Origin: Octopus sinensis | Taxonomy: Eukaryota | Length of the DNA stretch: 12,950 bases | NCBI RefSeq assembly: GCF_006345805.1 | Contig: NW_021826364.1 | Coordinates: forward strand, 1-12,950 | Reading direction: 5' to 3' | In this document: piece after piece, positions 924-12,950 of the stretch | Position numbering within the stretch: the first letter of the stretch is position 1 | How the letters are laid out: every line of letters starts with the position of its first letter | Program-made: the position numbers and the translations under genes | The notes under the pieces: generated by a model | What the model was told of the DNA's origin: nothing | Seen by the model: only the letters and a program-made list of their open reading frames with translations | Databases searched by the model: none

Positions 924-1135
924 CTTTTATTCTTTTATTTGTTTCAGTCATTTGACTGCGGCCATACTGGAGCACCGCCTTTAGTCGAACAAATCAATCC
1001 CAGCACTTATTCTTTGTAAACCTAGTTCTTATTTATCCGTCTCTATTGCCGAACCGCTATGTTACGGGGGACGTAAACACACTAGCATCGATTGTCAAGC
1101 GATTTGGGGGAGGGGAGCAAACACAGTCACGCAAA
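924..1135 (-). mobile_element. SINE family B, 3' half, minus strand
   Basis: Reverse complement matches ~12327-12521 of the full-length copy (TTTCAGTCATTTGACTGCGGCCATACTGGAGCACCGCCTTTAGTCGA; GCCGAACCGCTATGTTACGGGGGACGTAAACAC). The tail reads (CTTTTATT)n on the plus strand. Confidence 0.88.
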
Positions 1136-1506
1136 CAATGGTCCAGTGGTTAGGGCATCGGACTCGCGGTCGTAGGATCGCGGTTTCGATTCTCAGACCG
1201 GGTGTTGTGAGTGTTTATTGAGTGAAAACACCTAAAGCTCCACGAGGCTCCGGCAGGGGCTTGTGGCGAACCTTGCTGTACTTTTTCACCACAACTTTCT
1301 TTCATTCTTTCTTCATGTTCTGTTGTACCTGTATTTCAAAGGACCAGCCTTGTCACACTCTGTGTCACGCTGAATCTCCCCGTGTCGCGTTGAATCACAC
1401 GTGTCTGTGGAGTGCTCAGCCACTTGCACGTTAATTTCACGAGTAGGCTGTTCCATTGATCAGATCAGCTGGAACCCTCGTCGTCGTAACCGACGGCGCG
1501 CCACAA
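1136..1506 (+). mobile_element. SINE family C, tRNA-derived, near full length
   Basis: Pol III A box TGGTCCAGTGG (1139-1149) and B box GGTTTCGATTC (1182-1192) at tRNA-like spacing, then ~300 bp of non-tRNA body ending CGTCGTAACCGACGGCGCGCCACAA. Only one copy in the window, so the boundaries rest partly on family recognition. Confidence 0.75.
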
Positions 1507-1755
1507 TATGGTTGTATGGTAAGAAGTTTGCTTCCCAGCCATATGGTTCTGGGTTCAGTCCCACTGCGTGGCACCTTGGGCAAGTTCTACAATAGCTCGG
1601 GCCAACCAAAACCTTGTGGATTTGATAGATAGAAACTAACAGAATCCCATCGTACATATGTGTGTGTGCGCGCGCGCGTGTGTGTATGCCTTTGTTTGTC
1701 CTCCACCACCGCTTGACAACCGGTGTAGATGTATTTATGTCCCCGTAACGTAGCG
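1507..1755 (+). mobile_element. SINE family B, 5' two-thirds, fused to a family A copy
   Basis: TGGTTGTATGGTAAG...GGTTCAGTCCCACTGCGTGGCACCTTGGGCAAG, internal (TG)/(CG) microsatellite, then GTTTGTCC...CCCCGTAACGTAGCG. Collinear with 12088-12388. Confidence 0.88.
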
Positions 1756-1907
1756 TGCCGGATAAAATGTTTCATGGCATTTCGTCCGTCTTTATGTTCT
1801 AAGTTCAAATTCCACCGAGGTCGACTTTCGGAGTCGATAAATTAAATAACAGTGAAACACTGGAGTCGATGTAATCGACTAGTTCCCTTATGCCTTTAGT
1901 AGAAAGG

Positions 1908-1908
<1 letters not shown>
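1747..1908 (+). mobile_element. SINE family A copy with internal deletions, followed by a (TAT)n tail
   Basis: ATTTCGTCCGTCTTTATGTTCTAAGTTCAAATTCCACCGAGGTCGACTTT matches 3551-3599. GTCGATGTAATCGAC hairpin at 1865-1879. It ends TAGTAGAAAGG, similar to the end of the 705-851 copy. Confidence 0.82.
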
Positions 1909-1941
<33 letters not shown>

Positions 1942-1951
1942 TATTATTATT
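1909..1951. repeat. (TAT)n microsatellite
   Basis: Directly visible. It is the probable SINE A tail and the insertion site of element D. Confidence 0.92.
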
Positions 1952-2149
1952 GAGTGAGAGAGCAGTGCATGCCATCAAAGTGAAACTGGGGTAAAATATA
2001 CGAAGCCCAATATACCCATCATAACTACCCGTCTGATAAGGGTACACCAGGCACATGCATCACAACCATATGTGCGCGACATGGTGATCTCATATCAAGA
2101 TAAACAGCGCATGACCTTGCAGGTGGGGCCCAGTTAGAATTTTCTTCTG
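1952..2149 (-). mobile_element. Element D, partial copy (198 bp)
   Basis: Direct repeat of 2169-2366 (offset 217) with 3 mismatches counted by eye, bounded by (TAT)n on both sides. The strand is inferred from a 5'-truncation model. Confidence 0.75.
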
Positions 2150-2168
2150 TATTATTATTATTATTATT

Positions 2169-2725
2169 GAGTGAGAGAGCAGTTCATGCCATCAAAGTGA
2201 CACTGGGGTAAAATATACGAAGCCCAATATACCCATCATAACTACCCGTCTGATAAGGGTACACCAAGCACATGCATCACAACCATATGTGCGCGACATG
2301 GTGATCTCATATCAAGATAAACAGCGCATGACCTTGCAGGTGGGGCCCAGTTAGAATTTTCTTCTGGTCAAGTAGCCTATCTCGCTGAAAAGGTCCCTGA
2401 ATAAGGATTGTTTAAGGATGTTGAACGAAACACCCATGTTTCCAGAGATGAACTATTCAAACCCCAAAGAATCCCTCTCAACACATGGCTATGATGCTCC
2501 CCCATTACTTCTGCTCGTGATCAGAAATGCACATATTGTCAGCCACTAAGGGACATGCTCAACTGGTTATGGTCAAACAACTGACAAGCAAATCTGTGGT
2601 ATTGAGCAGAATATTTGCTGTAGCCCATCTTTTATACCAAGACAAAACAATGTACATGATAACACTTCCAATCAGTTAAGATCAGAAGCCATGAGAGCCA
2701 CTGCCTGGTACTGCATCAGGGCATT
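2169..2725 (-). mobile_element. Element D, ~555-bp non-coding interspersed element embedded in (TAA)n
   Basis: Complex sequence sharply bounded by (TAT)n at 2150-2168 and 2725-2812, with a partial second copy adjacent. No credible ORF and no clear A/B box seen. The strand is inferred. Confidence 0.7.
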
Positions 2726-2784
2726 TATTATTATTATTATTAATATTATTATTATTAATATTATTATTATTATTATTATTATTA

Positions 2785-2812
<28 letters not shown>
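2725..2812. repeat. (TAT)n microsatellite, i.e. the (TAA)n tail or target of the minus-strand LINE
   Basis: Directly visible, and abuts the LINE 3' UTR. Confidence 0.92.
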
Positions 2813-2815
<3 letters not shown>

Positions 2816-3480
2816 TAGTATACTTTTTATATCGTGCTTTCATTTCACTACCGAGCGCAGCTCTGTGTGCCTTGGGTATGTGCTGTGATTTGTTGTGATG
2901 CTCTGATGGTTATTGTATGGAAAGTGTTCTGCGTAGGATGTGTGCAGTGCCTAGTAGTGCAATTTTCTGTATGTTATATGTGTTTGTAAGTCCTGGTGTT
3001 TTTGTTATGTATTTGTCTGAATATATTTTTATCATGCCTAATGCACCTATTATGATAGGAATTGTTTCTGTTTTTAGATTCCACATTCTGGTTACCTCTA
3101 TTTCCAGGTCTTTGTATTTTGAGAGTTTCTCCATTTCTTTTAGAGACACGTTGTCATCCGCTGGTATTGATACATCAATTAGAAAACATTTTTTTCTTCA
3201 TGATCTCTGACAACTATATCTGGTCTGTTGGCCTTAATTTCTCTATGTGTGTGTATCGGCATATCCCAGAGTATGGTTGCTTTCTCGTTTTCTGTGACCT
3301 TTTCTGGTGTGTGCCTATACCATCTTTTTTCTGTTGTTATTCCATAATGTTGGCATAGCTTCCAATGTATGTAGGTTCCAACTCTGTCATGTCTGTGAAT
3401 ATATTCCTTCTTAGCCAGGACTGGGCAGCTAGAGATAATATGATTTATTGTTTCTTGTCCATCTTCACATATTCTGCAGT
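2813..3480 (-). mobile_element. 5'-truncated R4/Dong-like (R2-group, RLE-type) non-LTR retrotransposon
   Basis: Minus-strand coding remnant 3478-2910, then a ~97-bp 3' UTR ending in (TAA)n. CCHC, RHD and PD..D..K motifs typify RLE LINEs, and Dong elements are known to target TAA repeats. Confidence 0.9.
2910..3478 (-). pseudogene. LINE ORF C-terminus: CCHC zinc knuckle plus restriction-like endonuclease, with one frameshift
   Basis: Hand translation: CRICEDGQETINHIISSCPVLAKKEYIHRHDRVGTYIHWKLCQHYGITTEKRWYRHTPEKVTENEKATILWDMPIHTHREIKANRPDIVVRDHEEK / frameshift in T7 run 3189-3195 / CFLIDVSIPADDNVSLKEMEKLSKYKDLEIEVTRMWNLKTETIPIIIGALG...LSIQ*. Confidence 0.9.
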
Positions 3481-3499
3481 AATATAGAAAAAGTAAAAA

Positions 3500-3710
3500 G
3501 GCAGCGAGCTGGTAGAATCGTTAGCACACCGGGTGAAAAGCTTAGCGGCGTTTCGTCCGTCTTTACGTTCTGAGTTCAAATTCTCCCGAGGTCGACTTTA
3601 TCTCCTATCCTTTCGGCATTGATAAAATATACACCAGTTGAACATTAGGGTCGATATACTCGACTTAATCTTTACGCTGAACTTGCTGGCCTTGTGCAAA
3701 AAATCCGGAA
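3500..3710 (+). mobile_element. SINE family A, full length, diverged
   Basis: Head GGCAGCGAGCTGGTAGAATCGTTAGC, B box GAGTTCAAATT (3572-3582), GAGGTCGACTTT, hairpin at 3650-3664, 3' end GCTGGCCTTGTGCAAAA. Collinear with 10757-10900. Confidence 0.85.
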
Positions 3711-3820
3711 CCTTCCGGGTCGATAGAATAAGTACCAGTTGTCTAATGAGGTCGATGTAATCGACTTACGTCCTCCCGCCAAACTTTCTGGCCTAGGGCC
3801 AAAACTTGGAACTAGTATTT
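3711..3820 (+). mobile_element. SINE family A, second 3' half in tandem
   Basis: CCTTCCGGGTCGATAGAATAAGTACCAGTT...GGTCGATGTAATCGACTTA...CTGGCCTAGGGCCAAAA repeats the 3' half of the preceding copy. Confidence 0.8.
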
Positions 3821-3830
3821 AGTTCATCAA

Positions 3831-3905
3831 GACAAAAATGGCCGAGTGGATACGGTATTGGACTACAAGTCCTGAAACCATGAGTTCAAATACGCTAGAG
3901 GCCGT
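3831..3905 (+). mobile_element. tRNA-like head (old SINE or tRNA pseudogene); 3' extent unknown
   Basis: A box TGGCCGAGTGG (3839-3849), anticodon-arm-like GGAC-TACAA-GTCC and B box GAGTTCAAAT (3882-3891). No acceptor stem seen. Confidence 0.5.
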
Positions 3906-4116
3906 TTATGTGTCTTTGCGTTACATGTTTAGTTTTTTGTCTCACGTTTATCTGTTCAAATCTGGTCTGACTCTCGAAAAGGTGGATCAAAATATTTTAT
4001 CAGTGGAAACAGCACATATTCTGTAGAAATAGTATTCTGGAAAAATATTTCTGTCTCGTGAGAATTTCGGCTCTTTCATTGGGTTTTATCAAAAAACGTT
4101 TGGTGTAAGTTCTAAG

Positions 4117-4463
4117 CAGTGAAGGCACATGGCTCAGTGGTTAGGGTGTCGAACTTACGACCGTGAGGTTGTGATTTCGAATCCCGGACCGGGCTGCGTG
4201 TCGTGTCCTTGAGCAAGACACTTTATTTCACGTTGCTCCAGTTTACTCAGCTGTAGAAATGAGTTGCGACGTCACTAGTGCCAAGTTGTATTGGCCCCTT
4301 TGCTTTTCCCTTGGATAACATCGGTGGAGTGGAGAATATAGGCCGGTATGCATGGGCGACTGCTGGTCTTCCGGGAACAACCGTGCCCGGACTTGTACTT
4401 AGGAGGGTAACTTTTTTGGTGCAATCTCATGGTTATTCATGACCGAAGGGGGTCTCCTCTCCG
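4117..4463 (+). mobile_element. Full-length CORE-type tRNA SINE (family E) with a 10-bp target-site duplication
   Basis: A box TGGCTCAGTGG (4130-4140) and B-box-like GATTTCGAATCC (4173-4184). CORE-like GTGTCCTTGAGCAAGACACTTTATTTCACGTTGCTCCAGTTTACTCAGCTGTAGAAATGAG at ~4203-4263. AAGTTCTAAG occurs at both 4107-4116 and 4464-4473. Confidence 0.9.
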
Positions 4464-5235
4464 AAGTTCTAAGGGAACTGAAACTAGGACTTGAATAATG
4501 TTATGCTACTGGTATCTTTTCGGAAAGGTATGAAGGCCATAACTTCTTAAATGTACTCCTTTTAAAAGGTATTTGGCTTTGGTTTCATGTTTGCGTCAAA
4601 AAAAAAAAAAATATATCTACAATACAAAAATATCTTTATTTTAGCTTCAGAAGTAAAAATACCGAAGAGAAATTATATTTTCCATGGTCGAATAATTTCA
4701 GTATTAATAAGCATATCGTTTTCCCTTTAGGGGTTTTGTATAGCATTTTGTTCGTTTACAACAATTGCATGTTTTAAAGGAGGATATGTAAGTACTGGAT
4801 CGTGCAACCAGGAGATTTGGGCAACGATTAGCAGCTGTTATAACATGCTTTCAGATAAGAACAACAAGAGCAACAATAATTTTTTAGAATAGTTTGTGTG
4901 TGGCATGGAATATAATTAGTCCAGCGAGAAAGTCGATTAGATGTATATGAAATACAGTTAGCAACTTTTCATTCGGCAACACAAAACTACTCGGCAAAGG
5001 AAATACGAAAGTTCGTCACGCAAACATTTCGTTGTTCTTGAAGATAGTTAAGATGCCAAGAGAATATTTCAACAAAGAAAATCAATAGCAAGAAATGTGA
5101 CTTTTGTTTTGTGACTTTAGCTGTTTGTTTCCATTAAACACCTCTCGTGTGCAAGAAAATTCCACGTACATTTCGGAAAATAAACTACTAATTTACATGT
5201 GTCTATCTTGCAAAGATGGTCATTTGTGCTTTCTC

Positions 5236-5340
5236 GTTGTTATCTTCTTGCTGTCGTTGTTGTTGCAAATGTTGCTGTTGTTGTTTTTGCTGTTGCTGTT
5301 GTTGCTGCTGCTATTATTGTTGTTGTTGTTGCTGTTGATG
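5236..5340. repeat. Imperfect (TTG/CTG)n trinucleotide repeat
   Basis: Directly visible. It produces the poly-Leu in ORF 5104..5400. Confidence 0.88.
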
Positions 5341-6009
5341 TTTGTGAAAGATGGCGAGGACGATGTTGGTGCTAAGAAAGGCAGCGGAGTTTCGTGTTAG
5401 TTGGAAACATTATTTTAAATTCTAAAGAAAGCAAACTATAGCAATCGCCTTGCAACACTCATTTGAATAATGGCGTTGGCCTTTTGACTCGCAGAATTGC
5501 AAATTCGTCCTCTATTACCGGCATTATTTTATAACGTCCAGTTTATAATCGGTGTTGCAGTTTCTGTGTTCAAATTGTGCCATAGCATACTCAGAGAAAA
5601 GAAAACAGAACCTGTGGTTGTTTTTAGGGTCTCCGAGATGGGTCGAAGGAAGGAGGAACGAAATGAGGCTATTTCGCTGTTAAAAAATCGTTTAAATTTT
5701 AAGGGTTAATCTACTTCTAGCTCCAAAAAGGCACGAAATGAGATGCTCTAAAAGCAGCCAGAGGGTTAGATGTTACATGAAGCAGGATGGCAAACTAACA
5801 CTGTAGCAGGTTTAACAATGAACTTCGAACGCCCCCGTCAAAGAAATAAAAAAAAGGAAAAACCTTGAAAAAAGAACGGAATATAAACGTTAAGGGGTCA
5901 GCTACTCATAGCTGTAAACAGGAACAAAGTAGTCTGCTCTAAATGCAACCAAAGGATCAGTCGTTATTAAATCAGATGGTGGATTAAAGCTAATCACTGG
6001 TTTAACATC

Positions 6010-6146
6010 GGCGAAGACATGGTAAGTTTACTTCCAAATAACATGGTCCCGGGTTCAGTCCCAATGCATGGCACTTTGAGAAAGTGCCCTCTACTATAGC
6101 CTTGTGTCGGCCAAAGCCTCGTGAGTGGGTATGGTAAACAGAAACT
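6010..6146 (+). mobile_element. SINE family B, 5' half, diverged
   Basis: ACATGGTCCCGGGTTCAGTCCCAATGCATGGCACTTTGAGAAAGTG...CTACTATAGCC...CCAAAGCCTCGTGAGTGG matches 12121-12226. It breaks off at (TA)n. Confidence 0.82.
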
Positions 6147-6189
6147 ATATATATATAGAGAGACGGCATGAGAGGCATTGTTTATTGGG

Positions 6190-6244
<55 letters not shown>

Positions 6245-6246
6245 AT

Positions 6247-6277
<31 letters not shown>

Positions 6278-6280
6278 AGA
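6146..6280. repeat. (TA)n/(GA)n compound microsatellite containing a 29-bp copy of the LINE 5' junction
   Basis: CGGCATGAGAGGCATTGTTTATTGGGGTC occurs at 6164-6192 and 6281-6309, each preceded by (TA)n(GA)n. Confidence 0.9.
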
Positions 6281-6782
6281 CGGCATGAGAGGCATTGTTT
6301 ATTGGGGTCGACTAAAAAAACTCAATCCCTACTCTCTCCAAAGCCACCGGGAGGGCTACATCATTTTTGTGAAGTGGAAAATATTCCATCAATATTGCAC
6401 AAATGATGTTGGCATCAATTTTAAAATCCATCCCAGTCTTGGCCCCCGTGCTATCCGCCCACTACAAAAATCCAACTCGGTACACATAGCAACAGTACGT
6501 CACAACTACTTTACCTCAACCGGTCCAGCTCTCTTTAATACCATACCAAAATACGTCAAAACGGAAACGGATCCCATAGAATTCAAATGTTCACTGGACA
6601 AATTTCTTCAAAAAATCCCGGACCAACCTCCTACACTCGGATATGTCTCCAATAATAATAACTCTTTGCTAGAGTGGGCTATGGTGTCCCATATATGGCT
6701 AAAAGACTTCACCAGGGGTGCTATTGAGTTAGACATTGCCTGGGCCTATACTGGCCGAAACCTTTCAAAGTTATCAAAGTTT
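6281..6782 (+). mobile_element. 5'-truncated CR1/L2(Jockey-group)-like LINE: post-RT C-terminus and 3' UTR
   Basis: ORF 6285..6815 contains YWGRLKKLNPYSLQSHREGY (compare YxxRLxxLxLxSLxxRR), GPALFNTIP, FKCSLDKFLQKIPDQP and NSL. The tail is TCAAAGTTATCAAAGTT followed by (TA)n. The clade assignment is approximate. Confidence 0.8.
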
Positions 6783-6805
<23 letters not shown>

Positions 6806-6814
<9 letters not shown>

Positions 6815-6960
6815 ATTTAGGGTATCTAAGAGATACCACCATGCTGGAAATAGCAGTCAAAACTTGACTCTAAAACCACATTTAATGTGGTTTTAGTGTC
6901 AAGTTTTGGCAGCTATTTTCAGCATGGTGATATCTCTTAGATACCCTAAATTATAATTTT
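6806..6960. repeat. 155-bp near-perfect palindrome (77-bp arms, 1-nt centre)
   Basis: 6806-6882 is the reverse complement of 6884-6960 with 5 mismatches. The centre is at 6883. Confidence 0.95.
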
Positions 6961-7312
6961 GATAATAATAATTACCTTTGAAGGTTTTTATTCCCATGCT
7001 GACCACTTGATAAGATCGATATTTAAATTAACTATCTTATCCTTATTTATATAAATCTCTATATATATATATATAGTCATCTACTTGGTAGTAAAGTAGT
7101 GAAGGAAAGCATCTTGTTTTAACCATCAGGCTTTAATTCTTAAGAAAGTCTCGCAGAAGGTCTTGTGTAATCCTATATATCGTGATAAATTTTAGCGTAT
7201 GAATCAAGGATTTGTGTTCTCTCTTCAAGATTCCAACTTCGGTCATACTTTGCTTCAGATGGGTTGCTACATATCCTGTTGTTCCAGTTCAAAAGATATG
7301 AAGCTGAAAGTG

Positions 7313-7315
<3 letters not shown>

Positions 7316-7401
<86 letters not shown>

Positions 7402-7424
7402 CGCGCGCGCGTGTGTGTGTGTAT
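7316..7424. repeat. (TA)n(TG)n(CG)n(TG)n compound microsatellite
   Basis: Directly visible alternating purine-pyrimidine tract of ~109 bp. Confidence 0.95.
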
Positions 7425-7825
7425 AAGACAGACAATCGCAATGATATTCCCAAAATGGTATTTATTCTGTTTAATAGCTTATGCCCATGACCCACCTGGA
7501 AACATCGTGCACCATGTAATTATTACATAATTAATTGTAGTTAATATTTTTTTAATTAATTCATTAATTTATTTATTATAAATTAATTGAAAAAAAAATT
7601 AATTTAATTTAGCGTGGAAGTCATTTCACCAGGAACGTTTTTGAAATATGAGAATCAAATTTTATTCTATGCTTAAGAATGCAGTCGGATGGTTTCTGCC
7701 GAGTGCTGCAAGGCAGGAATGAGATTTAGTGTTGCGAAGGCTCGCACACTGGTCCTCTCAAGAAAATCTGAAACCACGCTGTTTCATTCAGGTTGTTTAA
7801 CATGGCTCCATGTTTATTTAACATG

Positions 7826-8066
7826 TGGGTGTATCACTAAGAGGTTTGCTTCCCAACCACATGGTTTTGGGATCAGTCCCCTGTGTGGTATCCTAGGCAA
7901 GTGTATTCTACTACTAAACGGAAACTACGAGGAAGCTCGCCGTATATATCTATATGTGTGTCTTTGCATCTTTGTGGCTATGCTTGTCACCCCACAGCAT
8001 TTCACTACCGATCATGGTTTGTTTACGTTCCTGTAACTTAACGGTTCGGCAATAACACCGATAAGA
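7826..8066 (+). mobile_element. SINE family B, old copy, internally deleted and 3'-truncated
   Basis: TTTGCTTCCCAACCACATGGTTTTGGGATCAGTCCC...GGCAAGTGT...AACGGAAACT...GTTTACGTTCCTGTAACTTAACGGTTCGGCAA is collinear with 12090-12412. Confidence 0.8.
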
Positions 8067-8068
8067 TA

Positions 8069-8320
8069 TTCTTTTATTCTTTTATTTGTTTCATCCATTT
8101 AACTGCGACCATGCTGGAGTACAATCTTAACAGGTTTTAGTCGAACAAATCGACTTATTCTTTGTAAGCCTAGTACTTATTTTATCCGTCACCTTTGCTG
8201 AACTGCTAAGTTACGGAGACGTAAACACACCAATATCGGTTGTGAAGCGATGGTGGGGGACAAACACAGACACACACATACACGCACGCGCACACACATG
8301 CACATATACGACGGGCTTCT
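8069..8320 (-). mobile_element. SINE family B, 3' portion, minus strand
   Basis: Closely similar to 924-1135. It runs through the internal (CA)n to TATACGACGGGCTTCT, the reverse complement of 12229-12244. Confidence 0.87.
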
Positions 8321-8742
8321 CCTCCTACCGCAACTTTTATCCCAGTGCACACATAAAAAAAAAACTACGTTGTCCCCCCATCAGACTCTTTGTTTCCAGT
8401 AACCATACAGACGTTTCACGCCGTTCTCAGAGGATGTTACCACTCACTTTGATAATCACAGGTCGAAGGAGAGGTACGAACACGTGAACCGTGTATTTGA
8501 ATTACGAGTTAGTTCTTGGACCAATAATGCTTCATGCCCATTTGGTTTGAAGCAAAATATTTTACAGATGTAATTCCTATTTCATTCAATAGCATTTTGG
8601 TGAAACATCGACTGGTATCATGGGGTACGTTACCAAATTTCGTCTTGTATTATTAGTTTGTTTTTCAATTTGTTTCCATTCAAATGCATTCACTTCCAGA
8701 ATAAATATATCGCCATATATCAAATGAACGAGATTAACATGA

Positions 8743-10756: not shown

Positions 10757-10900
10757 CGAGCTGGCAGAAACGTTAGCATGCTGGGCGAAATACTTAGCAG
10801 TATTTCGGCTGTCTCTACGTTCTGAGTTCAAATTCCGCCGAGGTCGATTTTGCCTGTCATCCTTTCGGGTTCGATAAATCGAGTACCAGTTGCATACTAG
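10757..10900 (+). mobile_element. SINE family A, 3'-truncated
   Basis: CGAGCTGGCAGAAACGTTAGC...GTTCTGAGTTCAAATTCCGCCGAGGTCGATTTTGCCTGTCATCCTTTCGGGTTCGATAAATCGAGTACCAGTTGCATACT matches 705-773 and 3505-3645. Confidence 0.88.
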
Positions 10901-11051
10901 TTTATCCTGTGCATATTGTATTATTAGCATTATTCTGTGTTTGAGAATAAAATTATTTCTTTATCTGTATCTTTCACTACATTTCAACGCTTCTAAAGCA
11001 AACTTTGTTAACTTTCAACGTAAGTTGAATTTAAGATATATATATATATAT

Positions 11052-11857
11052 ATATGCCGAAAAATTGGACATGTTGTCCATTAACCATATAATTTTTTCA
11101 CAATACATGTATACATACATATGTAACATACATGCATATGTAACATATGTATTGTGAAAAGATTATATGGTTAATGGACAACATGTCCAATTTTTCGGCA
11201 TATTTGGCATTAGAATTTTTTTCCTTTGCCCTCACTTATGAATTGTTTATAAATTTAACCGTTAAAGGTATTTTTTAATATACTGGCCATTGATAAAATT
11301 TTTTTCGAGAAAATATTTTTTTTCGAAAAGAATTTTATCCTTACATTTGATATAAATTTAAGCGTTCACTTCCGAACTGACTAACTCACTCTGTGAGAGC
11401 CTCAGTTCAAATCGCACGTGCCTCGAATGGGCTGGAGTATTTCTAGTTTGGAAGTATTTGGGGTACTTAGCTGTGCCCATTACTTAGTATTTGCTTCTTT
11501 CATGGGTATGAGTAAGTATCTCATTTATTTCTTTTGCCACATGTATCACTGACGAAGAGAGGGCTCCTAGTAGCTAACTCTGAAATCGGTCCGATATGGT
11601 AATAATGGAATTTTTTAGAAATTTCTGCCGACCTTTTTTCGAGTAGCGTGCGTATTGTGAAAAGATTATATGGTTAATGGACAACATGTCCAATTTTTCG
11701 GCATATTTGGCATTAGAAATTTTTTCCTTTGCCCTCATTTATGAATTGCTTATAAATTTAACCGTTAAAGGTATTTTTTAATATGCTGGCCATTGATAAA
11801 ATTCTTTTCGAGAAAATATTTTTTTTCGAAAAGAATTTTATCCTCACATTTGATATA
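11052..11857 (+). mobile_element. Non-autonomous Penelope-like/retrozyme-like element (partial tandem, inverted end, hammerhead motif)
   Basis: Inverted repeat 11052-11108/11147-11203 (57 bp, 1 mismatch). Direct repeat 11149-11354/11652-11857 (206 bp, offset 503, 6 mismatches). Hammerhead core at 11549-11591 and (TA)n on both flanks. Confidence 0.75.
11543..11597 (+). ncRNA. Minimal type-I hammerhead ribozyme motif, probably slightly decayed
   Basis: GTATCA-CTGACGA-AGAG(AGGGCTCCTAGTAGCTAA)CTCT-GAAA-TCGG-TC/CGATAT. Both core boxes are present, stem II is AGAG/CTCT, stem I is GTATC/GATAT with an A.C mismatch at the first pair, and the putative cleavage is after GTC at 11591. Confidence 0.65.
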
Positions 11858-11887
11858 TATATACATGTGTGTGTGTGTGCGCGTGTA

Positions 11888-12028: not shown

Positions 12029-12239
12029 GTGGGTGTGTGGTAAGTATAGGCGTAGGAGTGGTTGTGTGGTAGGTTATAGGCGTAGGAGTGGCTTTGTGGT
12101 AATTAGCTTGCTTACGAACAACATGGTTCCGGGTTCAGCCCCACTGCGTGGCACCTTGAGCAAGTGTCTTCTACTGTAAGTCGAGCCGACCAAAGCCTTT
12201 TGAGTGGATTTGTTAAACGGAAATTGAAAGAAGCCCGTC

Positions 12240-12302
<63 letters not shown>

Positions 12303-12529
12303 GTATGTATGTATGTGTGTGTATATGTTTGTCCCCCCAACATCGCTTGACACCGATGCTGTTGTGTTTACGTCCCTGTATCTTAGCGGTTCGGCAAAAG
12401 AGACCGATAGAATAAGTACTAGGCTTACAAAGAGTAAGTCCTGGTGTCGATTTGCTCGACTAAAGGCGGTACTCCAGCATGGCCACAGTCAAATGACTAA
12501 AACAAGTAAAAGAGTAAAAGAGAGAGAGA
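12029..12529 (+). mobile_element. SINE family B, full length, with a triplicated 5' end and internal microsatellite
   Basis: Head GGCGTAGGAGTGGCTTTGTGGTAA, B-box-like GGTTCAGCCC, CCTTGAGCAAGTG, internal (TA)n(TATG)n at 12241-12327, and tail AAGTAAAAGAGTAAAAGAG. Five other partial copies occur in the window. Confidence 0.92.
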
Positions 12530-12950
12530 ATAAAAAAAGCTTTAGTGGCTAAGCGGTCGATAATGTCGATGGCTGAACAGAGGTGATCAGACAGATCCAT
12601 TTAAAAGAAGAAAAGAAAATGGAGATTAGGAAGCTAATAATTGTTTATATTTAACAACAAATTGGTCATCTTCATTTACAGCTGTTTCAATTAATACGCA
12701 ATAAGTTAATTACAAACTTGCACATTAAATTTACATTTATATGACATGAGTATAATTTCATCAGAGGGAAAAAAGATGTACCTTTGAACGTTATATGCGG
12801 GCTTATCAATTTATTTCAGCAGACTACATATTACAGTTTATGGTTTGTATTGTTATATGCTCGGGCGAGGGGTTTAACTGGTTGATTAGAGATAAAGCAG
12901 AATAGGTTAATAAAATTCGAACAATAAATAAAGTCATTAGACATGATAGA

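Follow-up and report, generated by a model that had tools for sequence, protein, structure and literature searches.

A non-coding hammerhead repeat family of Octopus sinensis with the insertion footprint of Penelope-like elements

The 503-nt unit studied in a 12,950-nt stretch of Octopus sinensis DNA (the window; contig NW_021826364.1) belongs to a family dispersed through the genome, of which at least 681 copies carry the hammerhead. Judged by its sequence, the family falls among the animal non-LTR retrozymes in the respects that could be tested: the unit was non-coding and had no LTR structure, each unit carried a type I hammerhead according to fold and covariation, with a negative Rfam result, and some loci were tandem with two or more hammerheads. 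This class of element is already known, and the insertion footprint supports its proposed link to Penelope-like elements (PLEs). The unit works like a PLE insertion but is not an autonomous PLE. PLE machinery very probably mobilises it, and the likely enzyme is a Neptune-type Penelope protein with reverse transcriptase (RT) and GIY-YIG domains that would copy this non-coding hammerhead family in trans. A Penelope RT had been named as the copier in the original prediction, and coding Penelope-like families of the same genome shared the insertion footprint. Because two coding Neptune-type families showed the same pairing of two fixed ends, sites A and B, a Penelope-type RT/endonuclease likely mobilises the unit, with priming on both of the cut strands.

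The features of the window locus are given in Table 1. As predicted, the 206-bp direct repeats at 11149-11354 and 11652-11857 were offset by 503 bp with exactly 6 mismatches, (TA)n flanked the insertion on both sides, and the unit had no open reading frame (ORF) longer than 54 codons from stop to stop, even when read round as a circle. An ORF encoding RT and GIY-YIG, as in an autonomous PLE with an endonuclease (EN+), was not found at the window locus. The 57-bp inverted copy was recovered as a match with 1 mismatch, but only 55 bp of it was family sequence. Position 11140, inside the filler of 11107-11148, is therefore no unit start, and the unit lacks an intrinsic one. Unit positions (q) are counted from 11140. 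The inverted arm stood head-to-head with the direct arm and stopped at q64, 41 nt before the usual site A, an exception among the copies that may reflect a minor start site or a later deletion. The filler of 42 nt also differed from most family junctions, which had 0-16 nt of microhomology or short inserts. The locus contained 1 CTGANGA core and not 2. With only one hammerhead the window copy could not release a monomer and is therefore probably a dead end. SINE-like repeats of very high copy number flanked the insertion (10757-10895 and 12029-12530), and related copies lay at about 1509, 6009 and 7827. Elsewhere in the window, a near-perfect palindromic, MITE-like element of about 155 nt adjoined (TA)n (6803-6960), and a 217-bp head-to-tail duplication (98%) lay beside a (TTA)n tract (1934-2366).

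Table 1. Positions of the features at the window locus.
Feature	Position	Strand	Remarks
(AT)n target microsatellite, left part	11036..11055	.	last 4 nt overlap the arm end
Inverted short arm	11052..11106	-	unit positions q10-q64
Junction filler	11107..11148	.	42 nt, low complexity, ATGT/ACAT-rich, at the head-to-head junction
Direct arm	11149..11857	+	709 nt = 1.41 units, ends at site B
One full unit	11149..11651	+	503 nt, 35% GC, no ORF, predicted strong circular fold
Site A	11240..11244	+	one of the two fixed 3' ends of the family (the first); read through here and repeated at ~11747
Tail between sites A and B	11245..11354	+	~110 nt, long hairpin at 11292-11339
Type I hammerhead (predicted)	11537..11608	+	imposed fold, covariation
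Stem I	11544-48/11597-601 plus 11537-39/11606-08	+	5+3 bp
Hammerhead core	11549-55	+	
Stem II	11556-81	+	two-part
GAAA	11582-85	+	
Stem III	11585-88/11592-95	+	4 bp
Terminal tail	11748..11857	+	ends at site B; 5-nt ATATA microhomology to target
(AT)n target microsatellite, right part	11853..11863	.	

The hammerhead was a full type I motif instead of the minimal PLE type that had been proposed. Cleavage was predicted after 11596 (AUA), 5 nt from the GTC at 11591 favored earlier, and the imposed fold for the AUA site had -11.6 kcal/mol with 5 bp in stem I and 4 bp in stem III, whereas the GUC site would require A opposite C at the foot of stem I together with a loop of 2 nt, which is impossible, and gave -2.6 kcal/mol. 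This A-C apposition was nearly invariant, with A in 157 of 158 and C in 153 of 158 copies. Across 114 distinct ungapped hammerhead copies, 96% of the cells were paired, and compensatory switches between subfamilies, from A-U to G-C and from C-G to U-A, were present in 34 and 19 of the 114 sequences, respectively, both in the stretch left free in the pattern that gave 681 matches. This covariation goes back to two or three inherited changes and should not be counted as 59 independent events. The core was conserved across copies along with these compensatory changes, as the original prediction expected, although its conservation is partly built in by how the loci were picked. A search of the locus against Rfam gave no hammerhead family match, and the miRNA matches it returned were just the palindrome. 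The unconstrained fold of the hammerhead was an inactive alternative with z of only -0.4 to -1.4. Because stem III with its loop is near-palindromic, a dimeric hammerhead fold of the type described in the available text of PMC4209133 is also possible. The whole unit modelled as a circle had a predicted fold with z of -7.1 (60 shuffles), or -4.1 without the tail hairpin, while five control stretches of the window gave circular folds with z of +0.4 to -1.9.

When the 2.7-Gb genome was searched with the unit, 2,724 candidates came up, and the 40 that were scored contained 159 matches; the unit was multi-copy and not the single-copy local duplication that had been kept in view. The exact hammerhead pattern of the window subfamily, the exact tail pattern, and the hammerhead pattern with free stem II had 205, 218, and 681 genome matches, respectively, and 0 in each reversed control, so that the hammerhead motif is far beyond chance. 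Several subfamilies were present among the matches to the free-stem-II pattern, and pieces of the unit were also present in runs of organisms A to D. The 139 loci analysed comprised the best full-length matches, hammerhead-picked loci, tail-picked loci and one locus met by chance; the pattern-picked loci were drawn from the first 100 matches listed for each pattern, and the samples came mostly from the largest contigs. Before counting, L008, L011, L018 and L028 were removed as repeated places or contigs and L032 and L033 as segmental copies, as were the loci picked by PLE bait except L095. At L032 757-3647 and L033 792-991 (G000:C7, 16.33-16.36 Mb), a LINE-like element with an 827-aa frame interrupted the unit at q65/66, and the interrupted unit sat inside a segmentally repeated block. 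No published description of this octopus family was found in a search of papers on octopus hammerhead ribozymes and cephalopod retrozymes.

Contigs of four runs that were guessed to be RNA covered much of the unit, in a form from which strand, ends and circles could not be read, and loose ends in X12 resembled what we take to be a cDNA template-switch adaptor. No empty insertion site was seen in the four runs examined. A B-box-like word (Pol III) in the unit was set aside because the T-runs of the unit would stop Pol III, and splice-like words were set aside because no matching joints were among those listed for the run contigs.

The 3' ends of the copies clustered at two fixed points, site A (q105) and site B (about q215), both of which ran into (TA)n with a few bases of microhomology, while the 5' ends were scattered across the unit. 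The spacing to the B anchor was 101-108 nt in most counts and 83-94 nt in a second group with a shorter hairpin, giving a tail of about 85-110 nt between A and B. Most sampled loci were head-to-head, with 96 junctions in 139 loci, and most junctions showed a few bases of overlap. Among the 69 junctions with both outer ends classifiable there were 67 AB, 2 BB, and 0 AA pairs, where 34.5 AB pairs were expected (p 4e-18); the other 27 of the 96 junctions, including that of the window, were not classable as A or B. Loci picked by the hammerhead alone gave 35 AB, 2 BB, and 0 AA, with 14 unclassified. The copies were circularly permuted and partly tandem with variable inverted ends, as had been predicted. 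No fixed terminal inverted repeats (TIRs) of a MITE or other DNA transposon were found; the inverted arms varied in length and end point, and target-site duplications were unreadable inside (TA)n. Position q362, at an 8-nt palindrome, was a recurrent 5' break point, often with fold-back (L117, L135, L137 and L175). A published count of A and B pairing was not found in the main texts of the literature searched.

The octopus genome contained the coding families Nep-1, Nep-2, Nep-3 and Nep-4. Nep-1 and Nep-2 encoded an RT followed by a C-terminal GIY-YIG domain with a cysteine linker, and both had near-identical copies with open frames of 775-781 aa; the Nep-1 frames were 775-777 aa in copies that were 99% identical. 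RVT_1 scores of both families were just under the curated cut-off, and in both a long upstream ORF overlapped or abutted the RT frame. Domain order and cysteine linker, as described in the available text of PMC8557442, place Nep-1 and Nep-2 as putatively Neptune-type. All four families terminated within (TA)n, at two points separated by about 30-55 nt, and they carried variant minimal hammerhead cores, including the U3-A8 type given in the accessible part of PMC4209133. In the four young Neptune-type families (L101-L106, L206-L225, L306-L335), the cores were U4C or U3-A8 with a palindromic 4-nt loop III. Head-to-head pairs were AB in 16 of 18 cases for Nep-1 and in 10 of 10 for Nep-4, and one B+B pair of Nep-1 is probably an internal tandem junction.

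The original prediction also envisaged an autonomous RT and GIY-YIG partner sharing the pLTR. This partner was searched for, but the four Neptune-type families and 30 GIY-YIG loci yielded no coding PLE whose pLTR was homologous to the unit, nor was unit-like sequence found in Nep-1, Nep-2, Nep-3 and the 30 GIY-YIG loci. Nep-4 has a look-alike 3' half of the hammerhead, but was rejected as partner when 106 of 300 shuffles aligned as well as its best alignment. L170 was rejected as other Nep-2 copies end before the unit. At this locus (960-8570; G000:C1:207471500-207481000), an intact two-ORF Nep-2 copy lies in a 5,935-nt partial tandem, and the repeated end past the Nep-2 3' end comprises ~370 nt of flanking sequence together with an older copy of the unit and a SINE-like repeat, an arrangement suggestive of either 3' transduction or a local duplication. 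The genome also contained other, divergent PLE families with GIY-YIG (L278, L293, L284, L288-L290).

Rare variants were common to the two inverted arms at 62 of 19,121 sites (29 of 66 loci) and to tandem laps at 27 of 10,121 sites (8 of 37 loci); the value for pairs from different loci was 6 of 167,026 sites. These results point to a single source molecule or locus for the arms of one locus, and later gene conversion could also account for the shared variants. Only 4 of 265 arms started within q452-464, at the cut site, and 1 of 63 did so in the tail-picked loci, which were not biased to whole hammerheads. The cut position was crossed twice or more by 19 of the 265 arms, and the longest arms had 1,328 and 1,742 nt. 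Because few 5' ends lie at the cut site and arms cross it twice, the cleaved linear monomer is not the usual template, and a circle or an uncleaved multimer remains. A circular RNA is the template that we moderately favor, because internal starts on a linear RNA would erode the family and because circles have been demonstrated for other retrozymes, whose unit-length RNA is ligated into circles according to the available text of PMC7229834.

In the mechanism proposed, rare tandem loci with two hammerheads would be transcribed, self-cleave after the predicted AUA and release unit RNA, which would be ligated into a circle. A Neptune-type enzyme would cut the (TA)n tract, and reverse transcription would be primed at A on one strand and at B on the other. 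The cDNAs would differ in how far they extend, in many cases crossing the ligation point and exceeding a full lap, before both are joined at short microhomologies. That the two strands are primed at sites A and B, respectively, is probable. As described in the accessible part of PMC11167929, the Anolis Poseidon protein nicks and extends both strands of AT-rich DNA in vitro and starts at two internal RNA sites, which define the tail. More tentatively, a dimer of the Penelope protein may grip one ribozyme-made RNA circle at two sites and extend both cut strands simultaneously, with one of its subunits starting at A and the other at B, the hairpin looped out and the retrozyme recognised by structure, without a sequence debt to a partner pLTR. 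The variation in tail length from about 85 to 110 nt would then follow, because the hairpin between the sites is looped out.

We consider it unlikely that the same Penelope enzymes copy a linear, uncleaved multimeric read-through, with the hammerhead acting rarely or only trimming ends and no circle being copied. The available text of PMC11167929 reports that hammerhead cleavage is dispensable in vitro and that uncleaved RNA is the main substrate for Anolis Poseidon, and arms crossing the cut site with scarce 5' ends there fit such a template equally well. However, internal starts on it would shorten the family in each generation, yet successive subfamilies appear to have kept the full unit and a compensated fold. 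Tandem laps also have rare variants in common, and the longest arms span 2.6 and 3.5 units although few same-strand dimers occur, 6 pairs being counted by eye among the first 100 matches listed for the free-stem-II pattern. The A and B asymmetry might also have a single priming and not two as its origin, with the intermediate then folding back or being resolved by the endonuclease; we regard this as improbable. The one-sided tail is ascribed to EN-mediated resolution in the part of PMC8557442 that was available, and the start sites did not differ between strands in vitro in that of PMC11167929, but in the latter the limits of the tail are also assigned to two start sites of the RT. Moreover, the 3' ends of both arms point outward into (TA)n, their 5' break points are independent of each other, and most of the junctions have short microhomology.

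Coding PLEs that are truncated look two-armed as well, and the unit could on that account belong, as its terminal repeat, to a coding PLE that has so far escaped notice, the copies analysed being truncated ones; in the PLE searches only the best candidates were scored, and Poseidon- and Naiad-type families lay outside the survey. This explanation is nevertheless very unlikely, given that 54 of 265 arms were longer than 503 nt and continued past B directly into the unit again, without an ORF, and that the 59 free 5' flanks of unit copies had no unique sequence in common. PLE protein bait matched 5 of the 110 unit-picked loci (L001-L070, L141-L180), and among L070, L145, L151, L161, L163 and L170 the PLE was a separate element in the three inspected base by base (L070, L163 and L170). 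Spread at the DNA level as a DNA transposon (MITE), a Helitron-like element or a satellite would agree with inverted ends and insertion in TA repeats, but is extremely improbable in view of the variable inverted arms without fixed TIRs, the compensated strand-specific ribozyme fold and a footprint matching that of RT-coding families.

Animal non-LTR retrozymes, as presented in the available parts of PMC7229834 and bioRxiv 10.64898/2026.07.22.740005, resemble the unit in being non-coding, low in GC and tandem, in their type I hammerhead and strongly self-paired predicted circle, and in coexisting with PLEs; both sources propose mobilisation by PLEs, and the preprint also proposes that retrozymes originated from PLEs. 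Their units are 170-400 nt (PMC7229834) and 51-972 bp (bioRxiv 10.64898/2026.07.22.740005) in length, compared with 503 nt here, and they form long arrays, whereas copies of the octopus unit were mostly sub-dimer and two-armed with two fixed 3' ends in (TA)n. This two-ended (TA)n footprint was not seen in the accessible text of either source. Stem III was 4 bp here and is 1-2 bp in canonical metazoan motifs (PMC4209133, available part), and the unit lacked pLTR homology to a coding PLE, in contrast to the 21 Repbase PLE matches for Xenopus families in the portion of the preprint that was available. With EN+ Neptune-type PLEs, as far as described in the passages of PMC8557442 and PMC4209133 at hand, the unit shares partial tandems, 5' truncation, an adjacent inverted copy, a tail on one end only, microsatellite bias and a hammerhead upstream of the 3' end. 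It differs from them in having no RT or GIY-YIG, a full and not minimal hammerhead, and a hairpin-containing tail of about 85-110 nt instead of the 30-40 nt of PLE tails. Poseidon of Anolis (PAc; PMC11167929, available text) likewise has two internal start sites defining the tail, an AT-rich target and extension of both strands, but PAc is coding and showed no strand difference in start site in vitro, whereas insertions of the unit paired A with B almost always. The one-sided tail of PLEs has already been described qualitatively in the accessible part of PMC8557442.

Arguments about which enzyme spreads animal retrozymes have hitherto drawn on co-occurrence and on similarity of pLTRs. In the octopus genome the footprint that the unit itself leaves on insertion matched that of coding Penelope-like families, and the near-strict pairing of A with B constrains how the inverted and tailed insertions of PLEs form. 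If true, simultaneous extension of both strands by a protein dimer on one RNA circle would explain the tandems, inversions and one-sided tails of PLEs together. A 503-nt RNA with two mapped start sites and young, intact Neptune-type ORFs make both questions testable in vitro.
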